From: a bacterium
GTDB taxonomy: Bacteria > Omnitrophota > Gorgyraeia > Duberdicusellales > 4484-171
DNA length: 64,000 nt
Direction: 5' to 3'
NCBI GenBank assembly: GCA_021796115.1
Contig: JAJYOP010000007.1
Location: 6,867 to 70,866 of the forward strand
A model generated the notes under the pieces. It was not told the DNA's origin and did not search any database. It worked only from the letters and a program-made list of their open reading frames with translations. Below, in pieces: positions 5,060 through 59,805 of this stretch. Position numbers and translations under genes: made by a program. The number at the start of each line of letters is the position of its first letter. Position 1 is the first letter of the stretch.

Positions 5060-7699
5060 ATGAAATCCAACGAGTTACGCAAAAAATATTTAAAATTTTT
5101 CGCGAAGAAAAATCACAAGATTTTTCCTTCAGACAGCCTTATCCCTGACGATCCAAGCGTGCTTTTTACGCCGGCAGGGATGAATCAATTTAAATCCTAC
5201 TTTTTGGGCGAAAAGACCGATGTTAAGCGGGTAACATCTTCCCAGAAATGCCTGCGCGCCGGCGACCTTGATGAAGTCGGCCGCACGCCGTACCATCACA
5301 CTTTTTTTGAAATGCTCGGGAATTTTTCTTTCGGCGATTATTTTAAACGGGAAGCCATCCAATTTGCCTGGGAATTCCTGTCTTGCGAATTAAACATGAA
5401 GGAAAAGGATATTTGGATTTCCGTTTACAAGGATGATAATGAAGCGTATACGATATGGAAAAATGAAATTGGCATACCGGCACAAAAAATAGTAAAACTT
5501 GGCGAAGATAAAAATTTCTGGCCGGCAAACGCACCGACAAACGGCCCCGATGGCCCTTGCGGTCCATGCTCAGAAATATTTTTTGACCGAGGCTCTAGCG
5601 TTGGCTGCGGTAAGTCTACCTGTAGCCCAGCCTGCGGCTGCCCGCGTTTTGTTGAATTCTGGAACCTGGTTTTTACCCAGTTTAACCGCCAGGGTGTAAA
5701 TAATTTAAAACCATTGCCGCAGAAAAATATCGATACTGGCATGGGCCTTGAGAGAATGGCTGCGATATTACAGGGTAAAGTTTCGAATTTTGAAATCGAC
5801 ATCCTTGAACCGGCAGTTACCTTTGTTGTAAAATTTCTTAAAGCAGATATCAGTAACCCCAGAGATAAAAGTTTCGTTAATGCCATAGTTGACCACGCAA
5901 GAGCTGCAACTTTTGCAATTTGTGACGGCGTTTATCCTTCAAATGAAGATCGAGGCTATGTTATCAGGAAAATTATCAGAAAAGCTTTGTACCATGCGCA
6001 TATTTTAGCCAAGAAAGAAGCGTTTTTATATAGAATGGTGGAATTATATGCCGAACTCATGCAGGAACCATACCCTGAAATCGGCTCAAAGAAAAACGTA
6101 ATTGCCAAAGTCATACGCACAGAAGAAGATAAATTCATTTCTAGTTTAAAAGATGCTGAATCGCAATTTTTCCTGATTGCCAAAAATCTGGAAAAAAATA
6201 AGAGCGATACGGTTCTAGCAGGGGATGTATTTAAATTGTATGACACTTATGGCCTTCCGCTTGAGCTGACCAAAGAAATGGCAGCAAGATCTTTGCTTAA
6301 AATTGATGAAAACGGGTTCAAAAAACTTCTTAGCATTCAGCAAGAGCGTTCAAGAAAAAGCAGTATGTTTGACGAAAATATATTTAAGGCAGAGGGTATA
6401 ATTTTTAAAGAAACAACGGAATTTACAGGTTATGGCGAAAGCGAGATTAAAACGAAAATCCTGCATATGGTAAAGCTTGAGGCGGACAATGTTTCAAAGA
6501 GCGCCGAAGTAAAAGAGTTAGACACCGGCGAAGAGGGGGTAATTGTTTTAGATAAAACATGTTTTTATCCGGAAGGTGGCGGCCAATTAACCGATAAAGG
6601 GAAGATTTCTACGAAAGACGGAGAATTTTTAGTCGATAAAGTTTTTCGCAGCGCGCACGCTATCCTTCATAAAGGGAAAGTTACCAGAGGAAAAATTTCT
6701 AAAACCACAGTTCACGGTTCGATAGATTTACAAAGGCGCCAGGCATTGAAAAGAGCGCACACAGCTACGCATCTGCTTCAGGCTGCCCTGCGCAAAGTCC
6801 TCGGCGAGCATGTTATGCAGCAAGGCTCATTAGTTGATGAAGACCGTCTTCGTTTTGACTTTACTCATTTTAAGGCGCTTGCTGAAGAGGAATTAAAACG
6901 CGTGGAAGATATTGTTAACGGGTTTGTGCTTGATTCAGACAAGATAATTAAGGAAGAACTTTCTTACAAAGAGGCAAAATCCCGCGGTGCGCTTGCATTT
7001 TTTAAGGATAAATATAAAGATACCGTCCGCGTAGTTTCTATAGGAAGTTACAGCAAAGAGCTCTGTGGCGGCACACACCTTGATTTGACTTCCGAGGCAG
7101 GTACGTTCATGATAGTTAGCGAGTCGTCAATTGCCAGCGGCATAAGAAGAATTGAGGCAATAACCGGAAAAAAGGCTTACGAAAAAATTAAGGAATATAA
7201 AAATATTCTTTTGAATTTATCTGAAAAGGTAAAATGTCCTGTCGAAGAACTCATAAATTACTTTGAAAAACAGGAAAAAGATTTAAAAGATGCCAGAGCG
7301 GCTCTTTCTCTTAACGAAAAGCAAAACATCTCAGCTAAACTTAAAGAGGCATTGCAATCCAAAAAAGAAATCAACGGGATAGACTATCTGGCTTATGAAT
7401 TGAAAAATACCAGCGGAACAGGGCTCATCGAAGCTTCGGATATATTAAGAAAAGAAATTCCGGAATTATTCATTCTGCTTATTTCTGAGGCTAACGGGAG
7501 AAATGTCTTTGTCTGTTCGGTAACCAAGGCCCTCCTTGAGAAGGATATCAGTGCCGCAAAATTCGTTTCCTCGTATAAAGACGAATTACAACTTCGGGGC
7601 GGTGGCAAAGACGCGCTTGTTCAGGGAGTCATAACTAACAGGCTAGAGGATTTTTTAGTAAAAGCGGAAAACTGTATCGTTAAATTTTTGACAAAATAA
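5060..7699 (+). CDS. alaS: alanine--tRNA ligase
   Basis: 879 aa; class II AlaRS N-terminal core (FTPAGMNQFK, RAGDLDEVG), editing-domain motifs HTATHLL and CGGTHL. Confidence 0.97.
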   Translation: MKSNELRKKYLKFFAKKNHKIFPSDSLIPDDPSVLFTPAGMNQFKSYFLGEKTDVKRVTSSQKCLRAGDLDEVGRTPYHHTFFEMLGNFSFGDYFKREAIQFAWEFLSCELNMKEKDIWISVYKDDNEAYTIWKNEIGIPAQKIVKLGEDKNFWPANAPTNGPDGPCGPCSEIFFDRGSSVGCGKSTCSPACGCPRFVEFWNLVFTQFNRQGVNNLKPLPQKNIDTGMGLERMAAILQGKVSNFEIDILEPAVTFVVKFLKADISNPRDKSFVNAIVDHARAATFAICDGVYPSNEDRGYVIRKIIRKALYHAHILAKKEAFLYRMVELYAELMQEPYPEIGSKKNVIAKVIRTEEDKFISSLKDAESQFFLIAKNLEKNKSDTVLAGDVFKLYDTYGLPLELTKEMAARSLLKIDENGFKKLLSIQQERSRKSSMFDENIFKAEGIIFKETTEFTGYGESEIKTKILHMVKLEADNVSKSAEVKELDTGEEGVIVLDKTCFYPEGGGQLTDKGKISTKDGEFLVDKVFRSAHAILHKGKVTRGKISKTTVHGSIDLQRRQALKRAHTATHLLQAALRKVLGEHVMQQGSLVDEDRLRFDFTHFKALAEEELKRVEDIVNGFVLDSDKIIKEELSYKEAKSRGALAFFKDKYKDTVRVVSIGSYSKELCGGTHLDLTSEAGTFMIVSESSIASGIRRIEAITGKKAYEKIKEYKNILLNLSEKVKCPVEELINYFEKQEKDLKDARAALSLNEKQNISAKLKEALQSKKEINGIDYLAYELKNTSGTGLIEASDILRKEIPELFILLISEANGRNVFVCSVTKALLEKDISAAKFVSSYKDELQLRGGGKDALVQGVITNRLEDFLVKAENCIVKFLTK

Positions 7700-7708
7700 A
7701 GATGTTAT

Positions 7709-7782
7709 CGCGGATGCAAACGAATGGTTACGGATGTCACGGATTAATCCGTTGAATCCGCTATAATCCGTATGAATCCGTG
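7709..7782. promoter_or_regulatory. phased CGGAT x4 / ATCCG x4 word array containing TATAAT, upstream of hisD
   Basis: CGGAT/CGAAT at 7711, 7721, 7731, 7740; ATCCG at 7747, 7756, 7766, 7776; TATAAT 7762-7767; hisD ATG 7801. Confidence 0.6.
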
Positions 7783-7800
7783 TTATAAAAAAATAAAGCT

Positions 7801-10931: not shown

Positions 10932-11644
10932 TAATTCCAGCAATTGATTTATACGATGGGAAAGTTGTCCGGTTTGTGAAAGGCTCACCGGCCCACTCAA
11001 CAACCTACAGCGGCAATCCGGTTTCTATCGCGCGTAAATGGAAAGAAGAAGGCGCAAGAGTTCTTCATATTGTAGATCTTTCCGCGGCATTAGGAGAATC
11101 CGATAACGCAGATATCATTGAGCATATCATCAAGGAAATCGATATCGATATCGAAGTGGGTGGAGGAATCCGCGATGCCGGAAAAGCGTTACGTTTTAAA
11201 AGGGCCGGCGCCAAACGGATAATCGTGGGAACAAAAAGCTTAGACGATAATTTTTTAAAAGAATTCTTAAGTGCTTTGGGTAAAAATGCCTTAGCCGTGA
11301 GCGTTGATACCAAAGATGGTTTTGTGGCAACCAGAGGTTGGCAGGAAAAGAGTAAACTTAAACCAATAGAGTTTATAGAGAAAATTATTGCTCTCGGCAT
11401 AAGGTGGATAATTTATACCGATATATCCAAAGACGGAACCCTTGAAGGATTAAATTTTAAGGCTTTAAAAGAGCTTTCCGTTTTTAAGGGTGTAAATTTC
11501 ATCGCTTCCGGCGGCGTCTCTGGTCTCTCTGACCTTAAAAAAGTCAAAGAAGAGCTTCCCTTTATCTGGGGTATAATCTCCGGCAAAGCCCTTTATGACA
11601 ATAAGTTAACTTTTGCCGAAGCAAATTCATTCCTGGAGAAATAA
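10925..11644 (+). CDS. hisA: ProFAR isomerase HisA
   Basis: MLIIPAIDLYDGKVVR.., VGGGIR, SGGV, ISGKALY typical of HisA (beta/alpha)8; 7-nt overlap with hisH. Confidence 0.9.
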   Translation: MLIIPAIDLYDGKVVRFVKGSPAHSTTYSGNPVSIARKWKEEGARVLHIVDLSAALGESDNADIIEHIIKEIDIDIEVGGGIRDAGKALRFKRAGAKRIIVGTKSLDDNFLKEFLSALGKNALAVSVDTKDGFVATRGWQEKSKLKPIEFIEKIIALGIRWIIYTDISKDGTLEGLNFKALKELSVFKGVNFIASGGVSGLSDLKKVKEELPFIWGIISGKALYDNKLTFAEANSFLEK

Positions 11645-11662
11645 CATAATAATTATGTAACC

Positions 11663-13095
11663 CCAAAGTGATAATGTCCCTTTTGGGCAAAGTAAAAATG
11701 TCCCCTTTTACAATTGCTATAATATCTCTCGAAGGAGGGTATTATGGCAAAGAGAGGCATTATCACAATGAAGCAGGAGGAACTAAAACGGCTCTACATC
11801 GTCCGTCAGGTACTGGATAAAAAGCTAAAACAGGTAGAAGCAGCGGATAAGCTTGCTTTGAGCTACCGTCAGACTAAACGAATAACTAAAAGAATAAAAG
11901 AAGAAGGCGATAAGGGAATAGTTCATAAATCAAGAGGTAAGCCCTCCCATAACCGTATAGCTCTTAAGATAAAGAATAAAGTAATCAATCTCTGCAGAGA
12001 TAAATATAAAGGCTTTGGCCCTACCCTAGCTACAGAAAAGCTCTTTGAAATCGAAAAGATAAGGCTTAGCGATGAAACTCTTCGGAACTGGCTCACCCAG
12101 GAAGGCCTTTGGCAGCGCAAGCGCAAACATAAAGAATACCGCGCCTGGCGCGAACGCAAGCACCGTTTCGGAGAAATGATTCAGTGGGACGGCTCGCATC
12201 ATGCCTGGCTTGAAGATAGAGGCCCCTGGTGCGTGTTGATCAGCCAGATTGACGATGCTACCAATAAGAAATCCGGACAGTTCTATCCTTACGAAGGAAC
12301 TTTGCCTGCCTTCTCAAGCCTTAAACAATACATAAGACGCTACGGCATACCCCATAGCATCTATTTAGACAGGCACACAACGTATAAATCAAACAAGAAG
12401 CTCTCAATTAAAGACGAACTGAATGACAGAGAATTCTTAAGCCGGTTCGAAAGAGCCGCCAAGGAATTAGGCATAACCATAATCCATGCCAATTCTGCTC
12501 CGGCTAAAGGAAGAATCGAGCGCTCTTTTAAAACCGACCAGGATCGCCTGGTCAAGGAAATGCGCCTTGCGAATATAGCTACCATTGAAGAAGCCAATAA
12601 GTTCCTAAAGAAATACTGGCCTAAACATAACAAAAGATTCAGCGTAAAATCCATAGAAGAAGGCAACCTGCACAGGCCGATACCCGAGGGCACAGACTTA
12701 GACGCTATCCTTTGCAAAAAGACCGAGCATGTTTTAAGAAACGATTTTACTGTCGGCCATAACAAGAAGTTCTATCAGATACTGGATAAGGCGATAGGCA
12801 AAAGCGTAACCGTCGAAGAAAGAATAAATGGCGCCCTTTATATTACTTACAACGGCAGGAAGCTTAAATACAAACAGGTAAAGGCCAGGCCAAAACAGAA
12901 TAAACCAAAGCTTAAACTAAAGAACAGAGTTAAACCGTCCATGGAACACCCCTGGAGGAAACCTTACGGTAAAAAGACGACAGCTTACGGAAAAGCGCTC
13001 TATCAAAATAAAAGCTATACCGAGGAATTAGTATTATCAGAGGTCTAAAAAGAGGCCATTTTAACTTTGGTAAAAAAGGGACATTTTAACTTTGG
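11663..13095 (+). mobile_element. ISNCY-type insertion sequence with duplicated ~23-bp terminal motifs
   Basis: Left end carries CCAAAGTGATAATGTCCCTTTTGG + GCAAAGTAAAAATGTCCCCTTTT. Right end carries the reverse complements AAAAGAGGCCATTTTAACTTTGG + AAAAGGGACATTTTAACTTTGG. One transposase gene inside. No flanking direct repeat seen. Confidence 0.85.
11744..13048 (+). CDS. DDE (rve-type) transposase, ISNCY family-like
   Basis: 434 aa. N-terminal HTH (KQEELKRLYIVRQVLDKKLKQVEAADKLALSYRQTKR). Candidate DDE residues in QWDGSHH, IYLDRH, GRIERSF. Architecture recalled from ISNCY-family transposases. Confidence 0.85.
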   Translation: MAKRGIITMKQEELKRLYIVRQVLDKKLKQVEAADKLALSYRQTKRITKRIKEEGDKGIVHKSRGKPSHNRIALKIKNKVINLCRDKYKGFGPTLATEKLFEIEKIRLSDETLRNWLTQEGLWQRKRKHKEYRAWRERKHRFGEMIQWDGSHHAWLEDRGPWCVLISQIDDATNKKSGQFYPYEGTLPAFSSLKQYIRRYGIPHSIYLDRHTTYKSNKKLSIKDELNDREFLSRFERAAKELGITIIHANSAPAKGRIERSFKTDQDRLVKEMRLANIATIEEANKFLKKYWPKHNKRFSVKSIEEGNLHRPIPEGTDLDAILCKKTEHVLRNDFTVGHNKKFYQILDKAIGKSVTVEERINGALYITYNGRKLKYKQVKARPKQNKPKLKLKNRVKPSMEHPWRKPYGKKTTAYGKALYQNKSYTEELVLSEV

Positions 13096-13118
13096 CTTGA
13101 CAACTCGCATTATAGTTG

Positions 13119-14213: not shown

Positions 14214-14345
14214 TAAGGAAACAATAGGATATTAAAAACTGCAGTAACTAACCGTTTGATTAATTTTCTTAAATATGGTTTTTTCAAATATAATGTCTAT
14301 CTTAAAATGAATAGACACGCTTATCTGTTAGCAATCCAGAGAGTT

Positions 14346-14405
14346 AGGTGATTTATAGACAAAAAATAACGGACAAATTGGACAAATTTCGCGAGGAAAT
14401 CACCT
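14346..14405. repeat. hairpin/word element (AGGTGATTT ... AAATCACCT) with GACAAA words
   Basis: AGGTGATTT 14346-14354 is the reverse complement of AAATCACCT 14397-14405. The loop carries GACAAA at 14358, 14372, 14381. The ACGGACAAATT..GCTAAT part recurs at 29096-29136. Confidence 0.55.
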
Positions 14406-14423
14406 CTCTAAACCGCTAATTTC

Positions 14424-14452
14424 TTGATAATCACCACGTTTAGCCCTATAAT
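14424..14452 (+). promoter_or_regulatory. near-consensus sigma70 promoter TTGATA-N17-TATAAT
   Basis: TTGATA 14424-14429, TATAAT 14447-14452. Confidence 0.6.
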
Positions 14453-14458
14453 ACATAC

Positions 14459-14584
14459 CTGTAGACAAGGAGAGGTTTCCCTTCGTGGCATACGAGTGGG
14501 ACCCCAGTCTTTCTCGTCTCCAAGTGAGAGGAGAGAAGGTTAAGGCCCTGGTTACTTAACGTGACCAGGGCCTTAATTTTTGTT
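14459..14584 (+). ncRNA. candidate ~125-nt small RNA (promoter- and terminator-bounded copy of a dispersed repeat)
   Basis: Starts ~7 nt after TATAAT and ends at a 14-bp GC-rich hairpin plus U-run. No ATG/RBS inside. The 5' part is homologous to 52513-52578. Confidence 0.45.
14542..14584 (+). terminator. strong intrinsic terminator
   Basis: AAGGCCCTGGTTAC (14542-14555) / GTGACCAGGGCCTT (14561-14574), loop TTAAC, then AATTTTTGTT. Confidence 0.8.
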
Positions 14585-14588
14585 GCGC

Positions 14589-14696
14589 CATATTTCGGAG
14601 TTTCGAAAAGAATAAAGAAAGCCTTCCAATCTTCTAAAAGCTGTTTGTAGAGAAGATATCCTCGTAGGTAATATTTCTGCTCGTCCAAGGAAAACC
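14589..14696. repeat. dispersed intergenic repeat, family 1 (copy b)
   Basis: CCATAT..TTCGAAA..ATAAAGAAAGCC..AGCTGT..GAGA.GA..CCTCGT aligns at roughly 70-75 % (hand count) with 18920-19030. Confidence 0.6.
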
Positions 14697-14747
14697 GTTA
14701 CATCTATGCTAACAATCTATAGGTAATTAATAATATTTAACAATACG

Positions 14748-14775
14748 GGAACTTTTTTTATTTTGGATTGTCTAA
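14748..14775 (+). promoter_or_regulatory. ECF (RpoE-like) promoter GGAACTT-N16-TCTAA
   Basis: GGAACTT 14748-14754, GTCTAA 14770-14775; ~60-85 nt upstream of the first ORF of the operon that ends with an ECF sigma/anti-sigma pair. Confidence 0.55.
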
Positions 14776-14857
14776 TATAAAAGAACCAAGAAACAAAATA
14801 TAAAGGGCTCAAATTATATTAAAAAGGAGGCAAAATGAAAACATCAAGGTACTTATC

Positions 14858-15145
14858 ATGGACAATTTGTTAGTATCAATGGTTTGTGCTGCGTCGGTAT
14901 TATTACCAAAAATTTATGCTCAAAATATAGAAGATAATAACACAGATAATACTTTTAATAACGGCGATATGAACGAACAAAATCAAATAGTTGATTCAAG
15001 CCAAGACGTAAACGATACCTTAAGTAATCTTGAGACTATTAAAAATGATCAGCAGAAGAATACAGACGAAAACACAAAAGATAGCGATAATTCAGACAAA
15101 AATAACTCAAGCGATAATACAGGTAGCCAAGACGATTCAAAATAA
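14858..15145 (+). CDS. small secreted Asp/Asn-rich low-complexity protein (start uncertain, possible frameshift with ATG 14835)
   Basis: 95-aa ORF with hydrophobic N-terminus ending ..KIYA/QN; the only good RBS (AAGGAGG) serves ATG 14835 in another frame that stops after 12 codons. Confidence 0.4.
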   Translation: MDNLLVSMVCAASVLLPKIYAQNIEDNNTDNTFNNGDMNEQNQIVDSSQDVNDTLSNLETIKNDQQKNTDENTKDSDNSDKNNSSDNTGSQDDSK

Positions 15146-15267
15146 AAAACCATACATCTATAATGAGTTACCTAATAGTTAGTATTTTACTATTGCTTTA
15201 TATCGCACTTGTCTAAAAAACGCTTTTTCTCAAAACAGTTAGGCAAACATTATTAATGGGGGTAAAC

Positions 15268-18660: not shown

Positions 18661-18919
18661 TAGTTTTAAGCAAATCATAATCATGAAAAATGTACCAGTT
18701 AATTTCCATTATTTTTATCAAGTGGCGAATAAAATACTATTGTATTCTTTGCTATTTGTTTTTAGCTTTTTTGTTATTTCTTTAATTTCTTCACGCCAGA
18801 ATAGGTTTTCTTGACTATATTAAAGAAGCGCTGATTATTAATTAATAGCTGACTATTAATAGATTGCTATGTTACCCTCTAGCCTTTAATGCCAGCATCA
18901 AGAGTGCCTCTTTATTGTA

Positions 18920-19030
18920 CCATATCTCTGTTATTCGAAATGGATAAAGAAAGCCATTCTAACTTTCAAAGAGCTGTAAACGGAGAGGAGAGACCCTCGT
19001 GCGATAGTCTGCCCTGACGAGAATCACCTC
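18920..19030. repeat. dispersed intergenic repeat, family 1 (copy c)
   Basis: CCATATCTCTGTTATTCGAAATGGATAAAGAAAGCC..AGCTGTAAACGGAGAGGAGAGACCCTCGTGCGATAGTCTGCCCTGACGAGAATCACCTC. Aligns with 14589-14696 and 43718-43781. Followed by the palindromic hairpin TCATTCTTCTTTTC/GAAAAGAAATAGAATGA and then TATAAT. Confidence 0.6.
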
Positions 19031-19108
19031 ATCATTCTTCTTTTCGAAAAGAAATAGAATGATATAATTAAAAAATCACAAATGAAGATATTCTAACTCA
19101 TAAAATTT

Positions 19109-49914: not shown

Positions 49915-50064
49915 GCTTTCTTTCTAACAATAACCTTGCCGCAGGATGTAAAAACTAATAAAATGAGCGCGGAATATAAAAATGGTGTTTTGAAAATCAG
50001 CATGCCGAGAATTGAAACTAACAAAAAAGGCGCGGGGGCTGGCATAAAAATTCCTGTAAAATAA
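49915..50064 (+). pseudogene. 3' remnant of an Hsp20/alpha-crystallin gene
   Basis: Open frame after the in-frame TAA 49912-49914 reads AFFLTITLPQDVKTNKMSAEYKNGVLKISMPRIETNKK..*. This is the C-terminal ..R.I.LP..V....I.A.Y.NGVL.I..PK.. block of small heat-shock proteins; the ~100 N-terminal residues are absent. Confidence 0.7.
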
Positions 50065-50085
50065 AATATCATACATACCTCATTT

Positions 50086-50293
50086 TTCTGAACATTCCCC
50101 GGAATTTAAGGGTATCTTGGCATAACTCTATGTAAAACAAGCGATAACGAAGATAAAAATCTATGATTCTTCAGGGGGCGGAGGCAAACGGATTTTAGCG
50201 GATGCAGACGGATAAAAAACCTATAATTATCCGTATGCATCCACAATCATCCGTGACATCCGTCCTTAAAAATAAAAAAATGGGGAAGCTCCA
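50086..50293 (+). repeat. 208-bp cassette, copy A (direct repeat of 55992-56199)
   Basis: Hand alignment: 205/208 identical, no indels (differences at 50119, 50237, 50265). Contains CGGAG/CGGAT at 50179, 50189, 50199, 50209; TATAAT at 50222-50227; ATCCG/ATCCA at 50229, 50239, 50249, 50258. Confidence 0.95.
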
Positions 50294-50393
50294 GACCTCA
50301 TTTTTTCCTTTAAAAATCTAAACTATGTGGTAATATACATAATTTAGGTTTTATCATTCTTGGATTATTTTGCATCAATATAATTATGCCGAT

Positions 50394-51230
50394 ATGAACA
50401 TTCTAATTTTTACCATACTTATCTGGGCCGCCTCATTAATTGCCGGTTTCCTTGGCGCACTGACCGGGCTTGGCGGAGGAGTAGTCATAGTCCCTTTATT
50501 GACACTGGTGTTTGGCGTCGACATCAGATATGCTATTGGTGCCTCACTTATTTCGGTTATTGCCACTTCTTCCGGCGCAGCTTCTGCTTATGTAAAAGAG
50601 GGGTTCAGCAATATCCGCATCGGAATGTTTTTGGAGGTAGCAACTACCTTAGGGGCTTTGCTCGGAGCTTTTATCGCCACAAAATTATCCACTTCTGTGA
50701 TTGCGATAATTTTCGGACTTATCCTGATACACTCTTCGTATCTGACCATAAAACGTATAAGTGAATCTCAACTAGCAATAAAACCTGACCCGTTAGCCAC
50801 CCGTTTAAAATTTGACGGCGCATATCCTGTAGCCGGAGGTTCTGAATCCTATCATGTCCAAGGGGTACCGCAGGGATTTTCTATTATGTTTTTAGCCGGC
50901 AGTATTTCCGGATTGCTTGGAATCGGTTCAGGCGCGGTTAAGGTTCTTGCCATGGACCAGGCCATGCGCATACCGTTTAAAGTCTCTACCGCGACAAGCA
51001 ATTTTATGATTGGTGTTACCGCGGCAGCCGGCGCAGGTATTTATCTTAATCGCGGATATATCGATCCTGTTCTGGCTATGCCGGTAATACTTGGCGTATT
51101 ATTAGGCTCGCTTCTTGGCGCGCGACATTTATTTGAAGCAGAAACGAAAAATTTGCGCCTGATATTCAGCGCAATCATCTTGTTACTGGCGATAGAGATG
51201 ATTTATTCAGGAATAAAAGGATATCATTAA
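50394..51230 (+). CDS. TauE/SafE-family sulfite/anion exporter
   Basis: ~8 TM with internal duplication; GALTGLGGGVVIVPLL and GLLGIGSGAVKV motifs; start ATG 50394 (track uses TTG 50370). Confidence 0.85.
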   Translation: MNILIFTILIWAASLIAGFLGALTGLGGGVVIVPLLTLVFGVDIRYAIGASLISVIATSSGAASAYVKEGFSNIRIGMFLEVATTLGALLGAFIATKLSTSVIAIIFGLILIHSSYLTIKRISESQLAIKPDPLATRLKFDGAYPVAGGSESYHVQGVPQGFSIMFLAGSISGLLGIGSGAVKVLAMDQAMRIPFKVSTATSNFMIGVTAAAGAGIYLNRGYIDPVLAMPVILGVLLGSLLGARHLFEAETKNLRLIFSAIILLLAIEMIYSGIKGYH

Positions 51231-51231
51231 A

Positions 51232-51618
51232 ATGACAGGACAAAAACAAGCTTGGACTGACCATAAGGTAGAGGTGTTTATCGGCAATCTTTTAAGAGCC
51301 GGCGTTATTGGTGCGGCCTTACTGGTTGTTTTAGGCGGCATAATTTATCTATTGCACCAGGGTTTGTCCCTGCCTGATTTTAAAACCTTTAAAGGCGAAC
51401 CGCAAGAATTACGCCATGTAGGTGCAATTATCAAACATGCGTTTTCTCTTCACGGAAGGGGGCTGATACAACTTGGTCTCCTGGTATTGATTGCTACTCC
51501 AATAGCAAGGGTCGCGCTTTCAATATTTGCCTTTTCCCGCCAACGTGACAGGTTATACGTTATCGTAACCTGTATTGTTCTTGCTGTTTTATGCTACAGT
51601 CTTTTTGGGGGCAGATAA
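51232..51618 (+). CDS. DUF1634 membrane protein (usual TauE partner)
   Basis: 128 aa, 3-4 TM, starts 1 nt after tauE stop. Confidence 0.75.
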   Translation: MTGQKQAWTDHKVEVFIGNLLRAGVIGAALLVVLGGIIYLLHQGLSLPDFKTFKGEPQELRHVGAIIKHAFSLHGRGLIQLGLLVLIATPIARVALSIFAFSRQRDRLYVIVTCIVLAVLCYSLFGGR

Positions 51619-51658
51619 TACGGGGTGGTTATAATTTATTCAAAATGGACAAATAAAG

Positions 51659-52432
51659 ATGATAAAAAAAATATCCCAAAATATTTCTAAACTACAAAAT
51701 ACTTTATTATTTATTTGCGCTACTTTGTTGCTGGGTATCATTATAACACTTGGATGGATTAACCATTTTGATTTTGAACGCTCCGTCGTAAATGCGGAGT
51801 TGCGGGAGCTTTTAATTATTGCTAAGTCAGCCGGCCACGATATTGAAAACGGAATTATTGGCATTAAACAAGAACCGGCTTATATAGATAAACTTATACA
51901 GCATATAAATAACGAGGAAAAGTTTGCGACTTTTGTTATGAACAATAAACACATTGTTTTAAGCAGCCCGATTAAAAGGCAGGTGGGCAAGAATATCATT
52001 GAAATTGGGAGAGAAATATTAAATAATAAAGAAATGCACAAATTAAGCAGGTTTGTGCAAAAACTGGATTCGAACGACTCCGGAACAGCAATTTTACTTT
52101 TTCCTGCAAAAAGCGAAAGTTCAAAGAAAGAAATGAAGTTGTTTGCTTTCACTCATTTGAAAGGAAAAACCGGAATCTATTCTATTGTTGTGACAGAAAG
52201 GTTAAGCGCTCTCACGGGCCCGTTACGCAGAAATTTAAGAGATATATTAGTGCTGGTAGGGTTATTTTTCCTTATATCTTTAATCTTCATCTATATTTTT
52301 TATCATGGCCATCAGAAAAGGATAAAAATGGAAATCAGCGCCAAAGCCTTAGAGATAATCAATAGAGAATTGCATTGTACAATTGATGACTATAAGTGTA
52401 TTGAGAAGAAACTTAACGATTATAAAAAATAG
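51659..52432 (+). CDS. TM-sensor-TM-coiled-coil protein, looks like the N-terminal half of a signalling protein with no output domain
   Basis: TM1 LLFICATLLLGIIITLGWI, ~160-aa extracytoplasmic segment, TM2 ILVLVGLFFLISLIFIYIFY, ~45-aa coiled coil, then stop; followed by 556-604 nt of non-coding sequence. Confidence 0.55.
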   Translation: MIKKISQNISKLQNTLLFICATLLLGIIITLGWINHFDFERSVVNAELRELLIIAKSAGHDIENGIIGIKQEPAYIDKLIQHINNEEKFATFVMNNKHIVLSSPIKRQVGKNIIEIGREILNNKEMHKLSRFVQKLDSNDSGTAILLFPAKSESSKKEMKLFAFTHLKGKTGIYSIVVTERLSALTGPLRRNLRDILVLVGLFFLISLIFIYIFYHGHQKRIKMEISAKALEIINRELHCTIDDYKCIEKKLNDYKK

Positions 52433-52512
52433 ATGTTATCGGAAACTGCAAGCAGATATTAGGCCATTTTTGAATCTCTAAATAACTTCCCGGCGAATGC
52501 CTCCTTGCCAAA

Positions 52513-52605
52513 TTTAGCCCTACCCTACATACCTGTAAAACGGGAAAGCTTTCTCCTTGTGATATATGAGTGGGATCCATATTTTTGCCTTTGGCAAAAA
52601 TATGG
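52513..52605. repeat. dispersed repeat family 1 (copy f) plus 13-bp perfect hairpin
   Basis: TTTAGCCCTACCCTACATACCTGTAAAACGGGAAAGCTTTCTCCTTGTGATATATGAGTGGGATCC aligns (~75 %, hand count) with 14439-14503 but carries TACCCT where that copy has TATAAT. Hairpin CCATATTTTTGCC/GGCAAAAATATGG at 52577-52605. Confidence 0.6.
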
Positions 52606-52713
52606 AACAATTGCGCAATAGATAATAAAAGATATGGCAAAGCTCAATCGCGGTCTATTCTTTATTGCTCGATTGTTCAAACTGCCCTTAGGCGGGTTCA
52701 GTTAAAAAAAGAC

Positions 52714-52747
52714 GGTATGGTTTTTTTATTAAAAATAGAACCATACC
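52714..52747. terminator. AT-rich hairpin, possible bidirectional terminator
   Basis: GGTATGGTT (52714-52722) / AACCATACC (52739-52747) with T7 / A5 runs inside. Confidence 0.4.
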
Positions 52748-53036
52748 CTTGATTGTTAAATAATAATTAAACATTGCGTTTCCAGATTTGTAATTCCAAA
52801 TTAATTCTCTGGCTGAAAACTATAAGTTATGTTAATATCACAAATATAAAAAGGAAAAGTACTGTATTTATACCGGTTGGCATTCTTATTCCGCCTTTGA
52901 AATATAAAACCTTGGTTATGGTAAAATTGGCGTTTGTTTTAGCCTATAACAGCCAGAAAAATCAAATTCATAGTTAATTCTTTCTGCTTTGCGTGTTACT
53001 CTATCGAAAAGAACTGATTATTATAAGGTAATTAAA

Positions 53037-54770
53037 ATGAATCCCGAACTGACTCCTACCTATTATAACCGCAAGACAATCATAGTCGTGCTTTCGTTAG
53101 GCTTATTATGTTTTGCAGCTTATGGAACAAGTATCCATAATGGTTTTCTGATGGATGATGCTAAAGCGGTTCAGCAGAATATTTTAATTAGAAACTTATT
53201 ATCTTTCCCACAATATTTTCATCAACCATTCATGAAAGGTTATTATAGGCCAATGACTCAGTTTTCCTTTGCTTTAGATTATCTGATTTGGAAGCTGAAT
53301 CCTTTAGGGTATCATTTAACTTCCATAGCTATACATTTTTTAAATAGCGTTCTATTATTCATCCTGCTGCAAATAATATGGGAAAGATTTGCGCTGTCAT
53401 CAGTGGTATCGTTTTTATTTGCCGTTCATCCTTTAGGCAGTATAGCTGTCAATTATGTCGCTGACAGAAGCAACCTTTTAGGCACGTTATTTATGCTAAG
53501 CGCATTAATAGCATTCTGTGTGGCCTGGAAAGGATACGACAGGAGATTTTACCTGGTAGGTTTCTTATTCTTTATTTGCAGTCTCTTAAGCCACGAAAGC
53601 GCAATTTTATTTCCATTATATTTATTCTGTACCCTCTCACTGCTATCTAAAAAATCCGATACAAAAAAGTTGATAATCCTGACTGGTTTTGCCATTTTTA
53701 TAAGTTTTGGATATTATCTATTGCATATTCTCTTTTTTAACTTTGGCACAAAAATATTCCCCGATATTAAATTGCAGGAATATTTTCGAAATCTGCCCGC
53801 ATTATTTTATTTAATTTTTAAATATCTCTTGCTTGCAATATGGCCCGTCAATATTTGCCTGATTCGTTCTCTTGCCCCGATGCCAACTTTCAGCCCACTA
53901 GGAATCTTTTATATATTTCTAGGCATCGTTTTTATCTCTCTGGTACTAATCAAATTTCGTAAAAACCGAGTCATACTTTTTTCTTTGGCATGGTTTCTTA
54001 TCGGGGTTTTACCGTTATACCGTATGATGTTTGCACGGCCGGAAATGGGGTTGATTATGCAGGATAACTGGATATATTTTGCTTCTATAGGATTGCTGAT
54101 TATTTACGGCCAATGCATTTTATTTTTAAGGAAATTTTTTAAAAAATGGTTAATTTTATTATTGGCACTTTTGTTTTTTTATATAAATCTAGACCTGTTT
54201 AATAATGCGTTATGGAAAAACGGGGAAACGTATTGTTCTTATTGGCTTAAGGTAGTTCCGAAAAATCCACTCGCTTTTAACGGAATGGGGGTATTTTATA
54301 CTGATAGGAAAAATTATAAAAAAGCAAAAGAATATTTCTTAAAAGGAGTATTTTGTTGCAGGAAGATAAATGGTTTAAGTGTGACTAACGAACTAATACC
54401 AGGAAGATTATTGGGGGAACTTTTAAATAACCTGGCTATAGTTTCAGATATGGAAGGCAACCCGGATGAAGCAAGGCGTTATTGCGAGTTGGCAATTATG
54501 AGCTACAATAATAACTCCGACGCCTATTTTTTTCTGGGCAACTTATATTTGCGAAAGAATGATATAGATAAAGCCATTTTATATTATAAAGAGTCAGTGA
54601 AAAAAAATTATTATCGAATGGATGCTCATCGGCAACTAGCGCTACTTTATTCTTTAAAGGGTAATAAAAAAGAAGCAATTAAGGAAGCTATGGCGGCAAT
54701 CTCTCTAGATCCAAACTGTTTTAACGTATTTGGCAATACGCAGGGTGTTCGGAATACAAAGGAAAAATAA
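53037..54770 (+). CDS. GT-C fold glycosyltransferase (PMT/TMTC-like) with C-terminal TPR repeats
   Basis: Start ATG 53037; ~11 TM; first-loop acidic motif FLMDDAKAV; block FALDYLIWKLNPLGYHLTS shared with 57687 paralog; C-terminal TPR-like repeats. Confidence 0.75.
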   Translation: MNPELTPTYYNRKTIIVVLSLGLLCFAAYGTSIHNGFLMDDAKAVQQNILIRNLLSFPQYFHQPFMKGYYRPMTQFSFALDYLIWKLNPLGYHLTSIAIHFLNSVLLFILLQIIWERFALSSVVSFLFAVHPLGSIAVNYVADRSNLLGTLFMLSALIAFCVAWKGYDRRFYLVGFLFFICSLLSHESAILFPLYLFCTLSLLSKKSDTKKLIILTGFAIFISFGYYLLHILFFNFGTKIFPDIKLQEYFRNLPALFYLIFKYLLLAIWPVNICLIRSLAPMPTFSPLGIFYIFLGIVFISLVLIKFRKNRVILFSLAWFLIGVLPLYRMMFARPEMGLIMQDNWIYFASIGLLIIYGQCILFLRKFFKKWLILLLALLFFYINLDLFNNALWKNGETYCSYWLKVVPKNPLAFNGMGVFYTDRKNYKKAKEYFLKGVFCCRKINGLSVTNELIPGRLLGELLNNLAIVSDMEGNPDEARRYCELAIMSYNNNSDAYFFLGNLYLRKNDIDKAILYYKESVKKNYYRMDAHRQLALLYSLKGNKKEAIKEAMAAISLDPNCFNVFGNTQGVRNTKEK

Positions 54771-54771
54771 G

Positions 54772-55539
54772 ATGCTGTGTGGTAAAAAAATTGTTGTGGT
54801 TATGCCGGCATATAATGCCGAAAAAACGCTGGGAAAGACCTATGACAAAATTCCTAAAAATATTGTGGACGAAGTTATAATAGTAGATGATTATAGTACG
54901 GATGAAACAGTCAATATAGCGAAAAAGATTGGTTTAGAACCTTATATCCATGAAAAAAACAAAGGTTATGGTGCGAACCAAAAAACCTGTTATAAACTAG
55001 CAATCAAGCACAATGCTGACATTGTGATAATGCTTCACCCTGATTATCAATATCCCCCCGCATTAATTACTGCAATGGCTAGCTTATTATGTTCCGATAT
55101 GTTCGATATAGTCCTGGGGTCGCGTATACTGGGAGGATATGCTCTTAAAGGAGGTATGCCGTTGTACAAGTATATTTCTAACAGGTTACTTACTTTTGTA
55201 GAGAATTTAATTCTTGGAATAAAACTATCCGAATATCATACAGGTTACAGAGCATTCACAAGAAAAGTGCTTCTGGAGATGCCGTTGCTGAATAATTCCG
55301 ATGATTTCATTTTTGATAACGAAATCATTGTTCAGGCTGTTTATTTTGGTTACAAAATAGGCGAAATAACAGCCCCATCTTCTTATGGGGAAGATTCTTC
55401 CAGCATAAATTTGTGGAGGAGTATTGTTTATGGTTTAGGCGTGTTGTTAACGACGTTAAAATTTTTATTACAAAGTTTGAAAATCGCAAATTTTTCAATA
55501 TTTGATCCAAAAGGCAAAAAGCTTTTGGTGGAAGATTGA
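54772..55539 (+). CDS. GT2 glycosyltransferase, polyprenol-phosphate sugar synthase (Dpm1/GtrB)-like
   Basis: Start ATG 54772; VVMPAYNAEKTL, IVDDYSTDET, HPDYQYPP (variant of DADLQHPP), soluble GT-A domain with C-terminal hydrophobic helix. Confidence 0.8.
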   Translation: MLCGKKIVVVMPAYNAEKTLGKTYDKIPKNIVDEVIIVDDYSTDETVNIAKKIGLEPYIHEKNKGYGANQKTCYKLAIKHNADIVIMLHPDYQYPPALITAMASLLCSDMFDIVLGSRILGGYALKGGMPLYKYISNRLLTFVENLILGIKLSEYHTGYRAFTRKVLLEMPLLNNSDDFIFDNEIIVQAVYFGYKIGEITAPSSYGEDSSSINLWRSIVYGLGVLLTTLKFLLQSLKIANFSIFDPKGKKLLVED

Positions 55540-55540
55540 T

Positions 55541-55753
55541 TTAATCCTCGCTAGATACCCCAGTCTTTAGAGTAGGGATGCTTCGCTTTGGCAGAAAGAT
55601 AAATTTCAGATATCAAAAATACGAGCCTTCGCCGGCCAATATACGGCCAGTGAGGGCTTTATTTTTGATAAAGATTCGTTAATAAGAGAATAATAATTTA
55701 AATCCCTTGCATCTCTGCAAGCTCCGGCGTTCTGTCTCTTTCCGCAAGGGGTT
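55541..55753. repeat. family-2 type hairpin elements after GT2 stop
   Basis: TTAATCCTCGCTAGATACCCCAGTCTTT.. (from 55541) resembles 59473-59546 and 14494-14513. CCTTCGCCGGCCAATATACGGCCAG (55626-55650) resembles 43738-43766. Hairpin AATCCCTTGC (55701-55710) / GCAAGGGGTT (55744-55753). Confidence 0.5.
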
Positions 55754-55991
55754 AAAGACGATAAGCTGGCCCTTGACAAGATTCAGCGTTATTTTTATGC
55801 TGTAAGAAAAAGGAATGTTTTATCGGACAGGATTACCTTTGTTCAGAAAAAACTTTATTGCTTTTTTCATGGATTCGAAAAAGATGATTAGCACTAAGAC
55901 CAGCATGACAATGGTAAGGATGGCGTTTAAATTTCCCTGGAAAGTGTGTTTAGGCAGGTAATTATTTTATGTTATCAAGGCCAGCCACAAA

Positions 55992-56199
55992 TTCTGAACA
56001 TTCCCCGGAATTTAAGGGTATCTTTGCATAACTCTATGTAAAACAAGCGATAACGAAGATAAAAATCTATGATTCTTCAGGGGGCGGAGGCAAACGGATT
56101 TTAGCGGATGCAGACGGATAAAAAACCTATAATTATCCGTATACATCCACAATCATCCGTGACATCCGTCATTAAAAATAAAAAAATGGGGAAGCTCCA
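55992..56199 (+). repeat. 208-bp cassette, copy B (direct repeat of 50086-50293)
   Basis: 205/208 identical to copy A. TATAAT 56128-56133 flanked by CGGAK at 56085, 56095, 56105, 56115 and ATCCR at 56135, 56145, 56155, 56164. Confidence 0.95.
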
Positions 56200-56290
56200 A
56201 TCACAAATTTTCTTGAAAATTACCACAGTTAGTCCTATAATAACCTCCTTATACGCCTGGAGATTTTGTCAAATATTAAAAGGAAGTGCA

Positions 56291-57664
56291 ATGACAGGAG
56301 TAGAGAAGTATTCGCACAAAATTGTAAGAAAAATAAGATTTAGAATACCGGATATTCCCGGAGCCCTTGGCACACTTGCACTTGAGCTGGGATTAGAAGA
56401 CGTAACTTTAGGTGACATAACAAAAATCCAGCTTACCTCTAATTATATCGTAAGAGACATTACGGCCTTCTTTGATGACGAAAGTCATTTCAGCAGGGCC
56501 ATTGCTGCCGTAAAGAAACTCAAAGGTTATAAGATATTGCAGATACAAGATGAAGTTTTGAATTTGCATAAAGGCGGAAAAATTGAGGTGAAGCCCAGGG
56601 TTAAGGTCGACACGCTTACGGATTTGCGCATGATTTATACTCCTGGCGTTGCCCAGGTTTGTAATTATATCGTTGCCAATCCCGGTGCGGCAAAAAAATA
56701 TACTTCGATAGGTAATACTGTTTGTATCGCAACCAATGGCTCAGCGGTTCTCGGGTTGGGCGATATTGGCGTTTTGGCGGCAATGCCGGTGATGGAAGGA
56801 AAGTCTATCATTTTGAATAAAATGGCCAATGTAAGTTGCGTTCCGTTGCTTACAAAAAGCGATGATGCCGATACAATCGTCAATACGCTTAGTTGTGTAG
56901 CAGAAACATTTGGCGCAATCATGATAGAGGACATTAAAGCGCCGCTTTGTTTTGAGGTCGAGAAAAAATTACAGGAAAAAGTAAAAATTCCCGTATTCCA
57001 CGATGATCAACATGGAACAGCAACAGTTATATTGGCGGCTTTAATAAAAGCTCTCGGCATTACTAGGAAAAGAAAAGAAAAAGTAAATATCGTTATAAAC
57101 GGGGCCGGTGCCGCCGGGATCGCCACGACAAAACTGCTTTTAGGATACGGTTTTAAGAATATAACTCTTTGTGATAGGTCCGGGGCAATTTATCAGACAA
57201 GAACCGATGGCATGAACGAATATAAAAAAGAAATAGCAAAACTTACCAATAAACGCAAAGAGCAAGGAAGCCTTGAGAATGTCATAAAAGGCAAGGATAT
57301 ATTTATCGGTTTATCAGGCCCAGGGCTGGTTACGAAAGGTATGGTAAGAAACATGAACAAGCCACCGGTTGTCTTTGCTTTGGCTAATCCCATACCGGAA
57401 ATCTGGCCAAAAGACGCTGGAGAGGCCGGTGCGGCCATAGCTTTAGATGGCAGGACGATAAATAATGCGCTTGTTTTTCCAGGGCTTATCCGCGGGACAC
57501 TTGACGCAAATGCTTCTGCAATAACCGAGAAGATGAAATTTTCTGCCGCCGAAATGATAGCATCGCTGGCCGGCAAAAACGAAATCGTGCCTAACTTTAT
57601 GAACACGGCTGTGCACAAAAATGTGGCTCGGGCTGTATTCTTCTCTGCCGGTAAATCTAAATAG
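56291..57664 (+). CDS. NAD(P)-dependent malic enzyme with N-terminal ACT-like domain
   Basis: Start ATG 56291 behind AAAGGAAG (track start 56108 runs through the repeat). ACT-like IRFRIPDIPGALGTLALELG; then HKGGKIEV..IYTPGVAQVC, GSAVLGLGDIG, MEGKS, FHDDQHGTA, NGAGAAG. Confidence 0.92.
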   Translation: MTGVEKYSHKIVRKIRFRIPDIPGALGTLALELGLEDVTLGDITKIQLTSNYIVRDITAFFDDESHFSRAIAAVKKLKGYKILQIQDEVLNLHKGGKIEVKPRVKVDTLTDLRMIYTPGVAQVCNYIVANPGAAKKYTSIGNTVCIATNGSAVLGLGDIGVLAAMPVMEGKSIILNKMANVSCVPLLTKSDDADTIVNTLSCVAETFGAIMIEDIKAPLCFEVEKKLQEKVKIPVFHDDQHGTATVILAALIKALGITRKRKEKVNIVINGAGAAGIATTKLLLGYGFKNITLCDRSGAIYQTRTDGMNEYKKEIAKLTNKRKEQGSLENVIKGKDIFIGLSGPGLVTKGMVRNMNKPPVVFALANPIPEIWPKDAGEAGAAIALDGRTINNALVFPGLIRGTLDANASAITEKMKFSAAEMIASLAGKNEIVPNFMNTAVHKNVARAVFFSAGKSK

Positions 57665-59471: not shown

Positions 59472-59546
59472 TTTAATCCCTCAAAAGGTATCTAAGAAGG
59501 GCTATCCCTTCCGGAATGGCCAGAGCGATTTCTGCGAGGGATTAAA
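59472..59546. repeat. family-2 hairpin element directly after GT-C stop (11-bp perfect stem, 53-nt loop)
   Basis: TTTAATCCCTC (59472-59482) / GAGGGATTAAA (59536-59546); inner AAGGGCTATCCCTT hairpin; could act as terminator but lacks U-run. Confidence 0.6.
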
Positions 59547-59805
59547 TTCGGGAAAATTCTTAATGCACAACAAATTCGCCTTAAAAATAACCCTATGTTG
59601 CTTTATAATATCCGTCAAGAAATAGATAGCCAGTTCCAGCAGCAGAAAAAAGTCAAAAAAAACACGATACACGCCATTCACAAATTGCTGGATAAAATTA
59701 TATTCATTTCGAAGTATGAAGAAAATCCTTCTTGCTTACTTACTTCGGCATCTTTTTTATTTCTTGAAAAATATTAAAGAGCATTAATCAAAACTTAGAG
59801 GTATA

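Follow-up and report, generated by a model that had tools for sequence, protein, structure and literature searches.

A 207-bp repeat in an Omnitrophota genome is probably a recently inserted non-autonomous DNA transposon

Miniature inverted-repeat transposable elements (MITEs) that lie beside promoters are a well-known route to changed bacterial gene expression. In this study we analyzed a 64,000-nt stretch of contig JAJYOP010000007.1 (positions 6,867 to 70,866, hereafter the window) from an uncultured Omnitrophota bacterium, in which a short direct repeat, present as copies A and B, stands upstream of two neighboring operons. An earlier note on this DNA, made from the sequence alone, had described the repeat as a portable promoter/operator cassette and had named a MITE-like element as the alternative. 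Our analysis favors that alternative, as copies A and B each have their own target-site duplication, the ends form terminal inverted repeats, and a third copy starts 2 nt past a stop codon. The repeat is probably a 207-bp non-coding, non-autonomous DNA transposon, a MITE that is best read as having inserted recently at least three times within ~17 kb. The published description of bacterial MITEs (PMC4596501) fits the element, which is likewise small (in the 50-1000 bp class), non-coding and intergenic, is bounded by terminal inverted repeats and target-site duplications, exists in several near-identical copies, contains a strong hairpin, and lies adjacent to promoters where it may alter expression. 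BrickBuilt (MITEPgRS) of Porphyromonas gingivalis also contains internal short repeats (PMC4596501), which form a 23-nt tandem minisatellite in BrickBuilt, whereas those of the present element are 5-bp words arranged with 10-bp phasing into a palindrome. Searches of plasmids, GTDB species representatives and JGI metagenomes revealed no sequence similarity between known MITEs and the element, which is a sequence-novel family of a well-known kind of element in the poorly known phylum Omnitrophota.

Other small bacterial repeats resemble the element less closely. The Correia elements of Neisseria duplicate a TA dinucleotide and have 26-bp inverted repeats, whereas the element studied here duplicates 8-11 bp and has 13-bp imperfect repeats. 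Repetitive extragenic palindromes (REPs) are 20-40 bp long and are mobilized by RAYT (IS200/IS605-like) enzymes without target-site duplication. The units in the window are similar to REPs and bacterial interspersed mosaic elements in being short, GC-containing, imperfect intergenic palindromes that also occur in operon junctions, and an 88-bp relative located between alaS and hisD fits this pattern. They differ in their length of 88-207 bp, in their 8-11-bp duplications and, for the larger unit, in possessing distinct terminal inverted repeats.

A repeat search of the window together with a MAFFT alignment returned the gapless 208-nt match between positions 50086-50293 and 55992-56199 just as first described, with 3 substitutions and no indel. 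The search also confirmed that this pair is the sole repeat in the window with an identity above ~75%, all remaining families reaching 70-75%. A base-by-base reading of the boundaries places the unit at 207 rather than 208 bp (coordinates in Table 1), since the two leading T's of the longer version are part of the flanking duplications. Once the last base is counted (G in A, A in B) the two copies differ at 4 positions, and divergence among all copies is 1-2% (identity ~98-99%), in line with the earlier view of a portable unit with recent copies. The gradual decay of similarity that had been reported past the right boundary is not a property of the element; it is produced by the right-hand target-site duplication and by two similar promoter-like contexts, and in the 40 nt that follow the duplications A and B are identical at only 16/40 positions. 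The longest open reading frames (ORFs) inside the element encode 39-46 aa, and a lookup of these ORFs among recorded proteins found no record. Similarly, the Rfam 15 covariance models gave no match in the window at the gathering threshold and only noise within the element at E <= 10.

Evidence for insertion comes from the immediate flanks. Copy A has the layout ACCTCATTTTT / CTGAAC...CTCCAG / ACCTCATTTTT, in which an exact 11-bp duplication abuts the element on both sides, while copy B has the layout CACAAATT / CTGAAC...CTCCAA-T / CACAAATT, in which 8 bp are duplicated exactly and the abutting 9-mers agree at 8/9 positions. The duplications of A and B differ in sequence, one per site, and are roughly as long as a helical turn. 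As a control we sampled 200,000 random window positions with the same offsets permitted; a flanking match of at least 11 bp was obtained at 3 of these positions and a match of at least 8 bp at 72. The ends of the element are also related to one another, with CTGAACATTCCCC at the left matching the reverse complement of the right end, CTGGAGCTTCCCC, at 10/13 positions, a value that only 108 of 300,000 random 207-bp segments equal. As reconstructed, the empty sites read ...CATACATACCTCATTTTT/TCCTTTAAAAATC... and ...GGCCAGCCACAAATT/TTCTTGAAAATTACC... for the two copies. Separate target duplications indicate independent insertions, and hence neither gene conversion nor selection is needed to account for the near identity of A and B. 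We also considered, and reject, a composite transposon that would extend from A to B, since the outer flanks are not alike and there is an individual duplication at each copy.

Direct repeats that contain an imperfect palindrome and flank co-directional gene groups could also be recombination sites, either attL/attR or integron attC-like, bounding mobile cassettes 5.7 and 11 kb long. A different duplication at each copy is not an outcome of site-specific recombination, and the mismatch of the outer flanks (A-left and B-right) indicates that the segment from A to B was not moved as a whole. Furthermore, no integrase or recombinase is encoded between or adjoining the copies, and the genes between them are ordinary housekeeping and envelope genes. 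We consider this explanation hardly credible.

A third copy (C) was found beyond the end of the window in contig k141_351227 of an independent MEGAHIT assembly (sample ERZ27233560). It occupies positions 11089-11261 of that contig, equivalent to window positions ~67119-67291 and thus ~11 kb downstream of B, and it begins 2 nt past the stop codon of a Fer4_5-domain gene. Copy C is 98.8% identical to A over 173 nt, at which offset the end of the contig cuts it. At offsets 14/32/150 the single-nucleotide polymorphisms (SNPs) read GGG in A, GTA in B and AGA in C, a pattern that fits a simple tree and for which gene conversion is again not needed. In total ~70 kb of the genome was seen (the window plus 2.2 kb upstream and 3.3 kb downstream), and the 3 copies in it all fall inside 17 kb, with no copy of the element in the 50 kb preceding copy A. 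This clustering suggests local hopping.

The same assembly bears on whether the repeat is real. Three MEGAHIT contigs match the window at 100% identity, carry unique flanks and copy-specific SNPs, and between them cover the A-left, A-right/B-left and B-right junctions. The A/B duplication is therefore not an assembly artefact, and the earlier report of two copies is upheld. All three contigs break within the element (k141_1109000 ends at 50260, k141_1108167 corresponds to 50149-56166, and k141_351227 starts at 56030), and the element explains why short-read assemblies break at these positions. Such breaks are what an artefact or a plain segmental duplication has in its favor. Against this explanation, an independent assembly contains five different junctions, identical to the window, each marked by its unique flank and by SNPs specific to the copy; the boundaries are base-sharp on both sides and accompanied by duplications, and the neighboring genes are not duplicated. 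The probability we leave to this explanation is next to nil. Given k = 141, copies B and C alone do not account for where the A-side contigs break (offsets 173 and 62), which hints, weakly, that the sample contains a fourth copy or a variant.

Regarding mechanism, we infer that a DDE transposase acting in trans would recognize the imperfect inverted repeats CTGAACATTCCCC...GGGGAAGCTCCAG and integrate the element at a target cut with a ~9-11-bp stagger; the flanking duplications would then arise when the staggered ends were repaired. Transposition would have been recent and probably local, with three or more insertions into AT-rich intergenic DNA over ~17 kb, and A and B would have entered 3 nt upstream of -35-like hexamers that belonged to promoters already in place. 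Any effect of the element on expression would presumably be secondary.

The ends and duplications also offer a possible parent. In the IS4 family of insertion sequences (ISs) target duplications are ~10 bp, and the IS10, IS50 and ISPepr1 subgroups have 5'-CT ends (PMC2266710, Table 1). Reported duplication lengths are 9 bp for IS10, 8-9 bp for IS50, 7-8 bp for ISPepr1 and 10-13 bp for IS4, and ISPepr1 prefers AT-rich targets (PMC2266710). The present element is similar to these three subgroups (PMC2266710) in its 5'-CTG termini and its ~10-bp duplications, and to ISPepr1 also in its AT-rich targets; more specifically, its ends (CTG.../...CAG) and duplications of 11 and 8-9 bp agree with the 5'-CT/CA termini and ~10-bp duplications by which the IS4 family is recognized. 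Its left end CTGAACATTCCCC matches the IS10 outside end CTGATGAATCCCC at 10/13 positions and the inside end at 9/13, and overall the element ends match those of IS10 at 8-10/13 (CTG....TCCCC). We verified the IS10 ends CTGATGAATCCCC and CTGAGAGATCCCC in plasmid R100, where they lie beside an IS4-like transposase gene. Unlike an IS4-family IS, the element contains no transposase gene, and no IS4-family element or transposase gene is found in the window or examined contigs (the ~70 kb seen); unlike IS10 with its 9 bp, its duplications appear variable in length (11 and 8/9 bp), and the similarity ends at 13 nt. On the basis of these end sequences we tentatively suggest an IS4-family parent from the 5'-CT-ended IS10/IS50/ISPepr1 clade, an assignment that may well prove wrong.

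Several observations weigh against a MITE or against the parentage just suggested. The terminal inverted repeats are short and imperfect, the duplications are of unequal length (11 versus 8/9 bp), and the resemblance to IS10 was noticed post hoc and is limited to 13 nt. The documented copies number just three, in a single orientation and all within 17 kb of the ~70 kb seen. No autonomous partner with matching ends was found in the window, the examined contigs, JGI or IMG/VR, which leaves room for one outside these collections. The window has a single transposase, that of an ISNCY element with ends unrelated to those of the repeat (1-3/13). Finally, no strain-level comparator that might show an empty site was found, as the nearest genomes have malic enzymes of 84% and 66-67% identity and are non-syntenic.

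The ISNCY element itself occupies positions 11656-13102 and encodes a 434-aa transposase (11744-13048) whose score against NCBIfam NF033594 is 374 bits. The imperfect terminal inverted repeats of this IS are 29 nt long (TGTAACCCCAAAGTG...), each end also carries duplicated subterminal CAAAGTnAnAATGTCCC words, and no flanking duplication is evident at 11656-13102. MEGAHIT contigs break inside it at 11796 and 12963, so it is probably multicopy. As a mobilizer of the 207-bp element it is ruled out by its ends.

Within the element lies a long imperfect hairpin with TATAAT in its loop. As originally described, four CGGAK and four ATCCR words flank the TATAAT: in copy A the left words CGGAG/CGGAT/CGGAT/CGGAT (50178-50213) and the right words ATCCG/ATCCA/ATCCG/ATCCG (50229-50262) are spaced 9-11 bp apart on either side of positions 50222-50227. 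The window contains 10 pairs of CGGAT words separated by 2-9 nt where 0.64 would be expected, and all 10 fall in copy A, in copy B, or at 7706-7785. When folded as DNA the hairpin has a free energy of -24.4 kcal/mol in A (z = -7.0) and -17.5 kcal/mol in B (z = -4.2). Two of the A/B substitutions destabilize the stem with no compensating change, and there is no sign of selection on the hairpin structure; this loss of stability in B also speaks against the earlier proposal that the copies are kept identical by gene conversion or selection.

Predicted RNA folds of the two strands are far more stable than those of shuffled sequences (z = -5.1 and -5.2), as would be the case if the repeat were a multicopy structured RNA gene, either a small RNA or a cis-acting RNA, with a 207-nt transcript folding into the hairpin. 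Both strands fold equally well, however, which is the behavior of a DNA palindrome, and the substitutions are non-compensatory. In addition, Rfam offers no match even at E <= 10, neither strand has a convincing promoter or terminator, and flanking target duplications are not expected of an RNA gene. We judge such a gene highly improbable. An intrinsic terminator was considered separately and is ruled out by an A-run after the hairpin on the + strand and a T-run before it on the - strand.

The third cluster of CGGAT words, in the alaS-hisD junction, belongs to an 88-bp hairpin element that aligns to offsets ~90-200 of the 207-bp element and shares its architecture, with 4 + 4 CGGAT/ATCCG words spaced 9-10 bp apart. 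Its loop is without TATAAT and it lies 11 nt upstream of the hisD ATG. It is flanked by a 9-bp duplication, AAAATAAAG, that includes the alaS stop codon and has a chance probability of about 2e-4 to 1e-3; its excision yields a tight TAA-AGCT-ATG alaS/hisD junction. The 88-bp element is also present in a Logan contig from run SRR13170412. Its ends and those of the 207-bp element are unrelated (2-4/13), which indicates that the hairpin occurs in two mobile contexts; it may be a nested insertion, a module that was captured or an array that binds protein. Nesting of an 88-bp-type hairpin inside the 207-bp element was examined through a 7-bp A-rich repeat (TAAAAAT) that flanks the hairpin region, which we judged uninformative, and we make no claim of nesting. 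A similar CGGAT/ATCCG hairpin (ACGGATGTCACGGATCTAACGGAT ... ATCCGTGTGATCGGTGTAATCCGTGG) occurs at ~1010-1090 of the unrelated contig IMGVR_UViG_3300025896_000151, indicating that palindromes built of such words exist outside the genome studied here.

We then weighed the original proposal of a portable promoter/operator cassette. In such a cassette the loop TATAAT, or else an outward-facing promoter at the 3' end, would drive the operon downstream, the phased CGGAT words would be operator sites for a shared regulator, and the identity of the copies would be maintained by selection or conversion. Copies A and B do have the same orientation, each heading the first gene of a co-directional string at a distance of 76-100 nt. 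The stated spacing of 90-100 nt to the first ATG holds for B (91 nt) and for A if its gene starts at ATG 50394 (100 nt), and becomes 76 nt if A is measured to an alternative TTG start at 50370. The words are phased at ~10 bp, one helical turn, as is often the case in protein-binding arrays, both copies contain a weak outward promoter-like sequence, and MITEs that carry promoters, such as Correia elements, are known. All genes in the window are on the + strand, though, so a shared orientation with genes carries little information. Regarding the promoter itself, the TATAAT in the loop lacks a -35 at a spacing of 16-18 bp (CGGATG, which comes nearest, agrees at 2/6 positions) and was not called in our promoter scan. 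The sole call within the element is the weak GTGACA-17-AAAAAT (9/12) at 50253-50281 and 56159-56187, and 9/12 sites are common in DNA as AT-rich as this (53 versus 38 +/- 6 in shuffles). A sigma-54 promoter (TGGCAT-N5-TATGT, at about offset 30) was also tried and is ruled out, as there is no GC at -12 and the GG is mutated in copy B.

The better promoter candidates are instead in unique DNA downstream of the copies. The best of the whole region (11/12) lies between copy B and the malic-enzyme start, and a plausible site that reaches 8/12 with an extended -10 TG follows copy A (Table 1). In both copies 3 nt (TCC or TTC) separate the right duplication from the -35-like hexamer, a placement that explains the regularity of 90-100 nt to the ATG; as the target was duplicated, the promoter-proximal sequence would be unchanged by insertion. 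The other units are positioned differently relative to genes, copy C 2 nt after a stop codon and the 88-bp hairpin, which has no loop TATAAT, 11 nt before hisD in a tight junction. Together with the uncompensated weakening of the hairpin between A and B, these observations do not support the element as a promoter/operator, although a secondary effect on expression is possible; judged from the sequence, the cassette is an unlikely explanation.

The identical 3-nt placement of two insertions (n = 2) is a lead only, as is the phased CGGAT array. One extension of the MITE interpretation would join the two, with the phased 4 + 4 word hairpin as a self-contained module that could serve a host or transposon protein as a binding platform, and with integration targeted to promoters, leading to MITE-mediated building of a regulon. 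We regard this as a long shot. If true, unrelated operons (tauE..., malic enzyme...) would be tied to one DNA-binding factor in a phylum known almost exclusively from metagenomes. The biological value of the element, as one more, sequence-novel MITE family, is otherwise modest, and it would become more interesting if the array binds a protein or if insertion targets the upstream edge of promoters. It does mark recent transposition activity in an Omnitrophota genome.

Searches for relatives elsewhere were negative. An internal 22-mer had 0 matches in 185,579 GTDB species representatives and 0 in JGI metagenomes, and a left-end 18-mer gave 3 IMG/VR and 48 JGI matches, all of them chance with no extension past the pattern. 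A 15-mer common to the 207-bp and 88-bp hairpins gave 85 IMG/VR matches, roughly the chance level, and blastn of the element against PLSDB plasmids gave nothing. The closest malic-enzyme homologues are from Candidatus Omnitrophica/Omnitrophota; leaving aside one identical protein, the highest identity is 84%. Neither the element nor clusters of CGGAT occurred in ~90 kb of sequence from the closest relatives.

The genes downstream of the copies provide a further indication that the repeats are recent arrivals. The earlier note had regarded the two operons as modules of one architecture, made up of cassette - genes - GT-C/TPR - hairpin. Identity between the two GT-C/TPR paralogs is only 28%, as compared with ~98-99% for the elements; the repeats therefore did not remain from the duplication of a module and point to recent insertion. 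The terminal hairpins at 55541 and 59472, which had been thought related, have just a 10-mer in common and give no BLAST match, and the shared-module description does not stand. At the second of these locations, right after the stop codon of the second GT-C/TPR gene, we observed a 76-bp unit (59473-59548) with a perfect 11-bp terminal inverted repeat (TTTAATCCCTC ... GAGGGATTAAA); its supposed partner at 55541 has the 10-mer only, with no matching inverted arm.

The element also affects gene annotation. Homologues, which are 455-461 aa long, place the start of the malic enzyme at 56291 and its length at 457 aa. ORFs with an ATG at 56108 or 56186, inside copy B, read in frame into this gene (518 and 492 aa), and one public gene call (492 aa) takes its start within the element. 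These longer ORFs are artefacts, and malic-enzyme calls of 492 or 518 aa should be read with the warning that they start inside the element.

Table 1. Positions of the 207-bp element, its flanks and related features (window coordinates)
Feature	Position	Strand	Remark
Probable MITE, copy A, 207 bp	50088..50294	+	bounded by an exact 11-bp duplication
Probable MITE, copy B, 207 bp	55994..56200	+	4 differences from A, at offsets 32, 150, 178 and 207
Left target-site duplication of A, ACCTCATTTTT	50077..50087		identical to 50295-50305
Right target-site duplication of A, ACCTCATTTTT	50295..50305		exact 11 bp, abuts the element
Left target-site duplication of B, CACAAATT	55986..55993		9-mer reading from 55985 is CCACAAATT
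Right target-site duplication of B, CACAAATT	56202..56209		9-mer reading from 56201 is TCACAAATT
Left terminal inverted repeat, CTGAACATTCCCC	50088..50100 (B: 55994-56006)	+	matches the right end, reverse-complemented, at 10/13
Right terminal inverted repeat, GGGGAAGCTCCAG	50282..50294 (B: 56188-56200)	+	
Internal long imperfect hairpin, TATAAT in loop	50176..50265 (B: 56084-56169)		4 + 4 CGGAK/ATCCR words, ~10-bp phasing
88-bp CGGAT/ATCCG hairpin element, alaS-hisD junction	7702..7789		9-bp duplication AAAATAAAG at 7693-7701 and 7790-7798
Best promoter-like site, malic-enzyme operon, TTGAAA-17-TATAAT (11/12)	56213..56241	+	consensus scan
Promoter-like site after copy A, TTTAAA-16-TGgTAATAT	50309..50336	+	direct reading; under the scan threshold

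A number of further observations were made in the window, in which every ORF of credible size is on the + strand, the GC content is 39.8%, and no tRNA, rRNA or other Rfam family was detected (positions 1-64000). Upstream of copy A a 33-codon ORF (49963-50064) resembles a C-terminal remnant of Hsp20 (Pfam HSP20, E = 0.0035, profile positions 73-100/102), which suggests that a gene in this intergenic region was truncated long ago. At 2840-2990, 10 nt past the recA stop codon and before a trypsin/PDZ protease gene, is a palindrome of 151 bp whose 44-nt arms are 84% complementary; it may be a further MITE-like unit, or else a structure with a regulatory or terminator role. Lastly, two pairs of 66-90-nt segments, 14434-14504 with 52508-52578 and 14579-14668 with 18911-19000, are 73-76% identical and are located in the gene-poor stretches 14214-15255, 18661-19108 and 52433-52988; these may be conserved leaders, promoters or decayed paralogous fragments.

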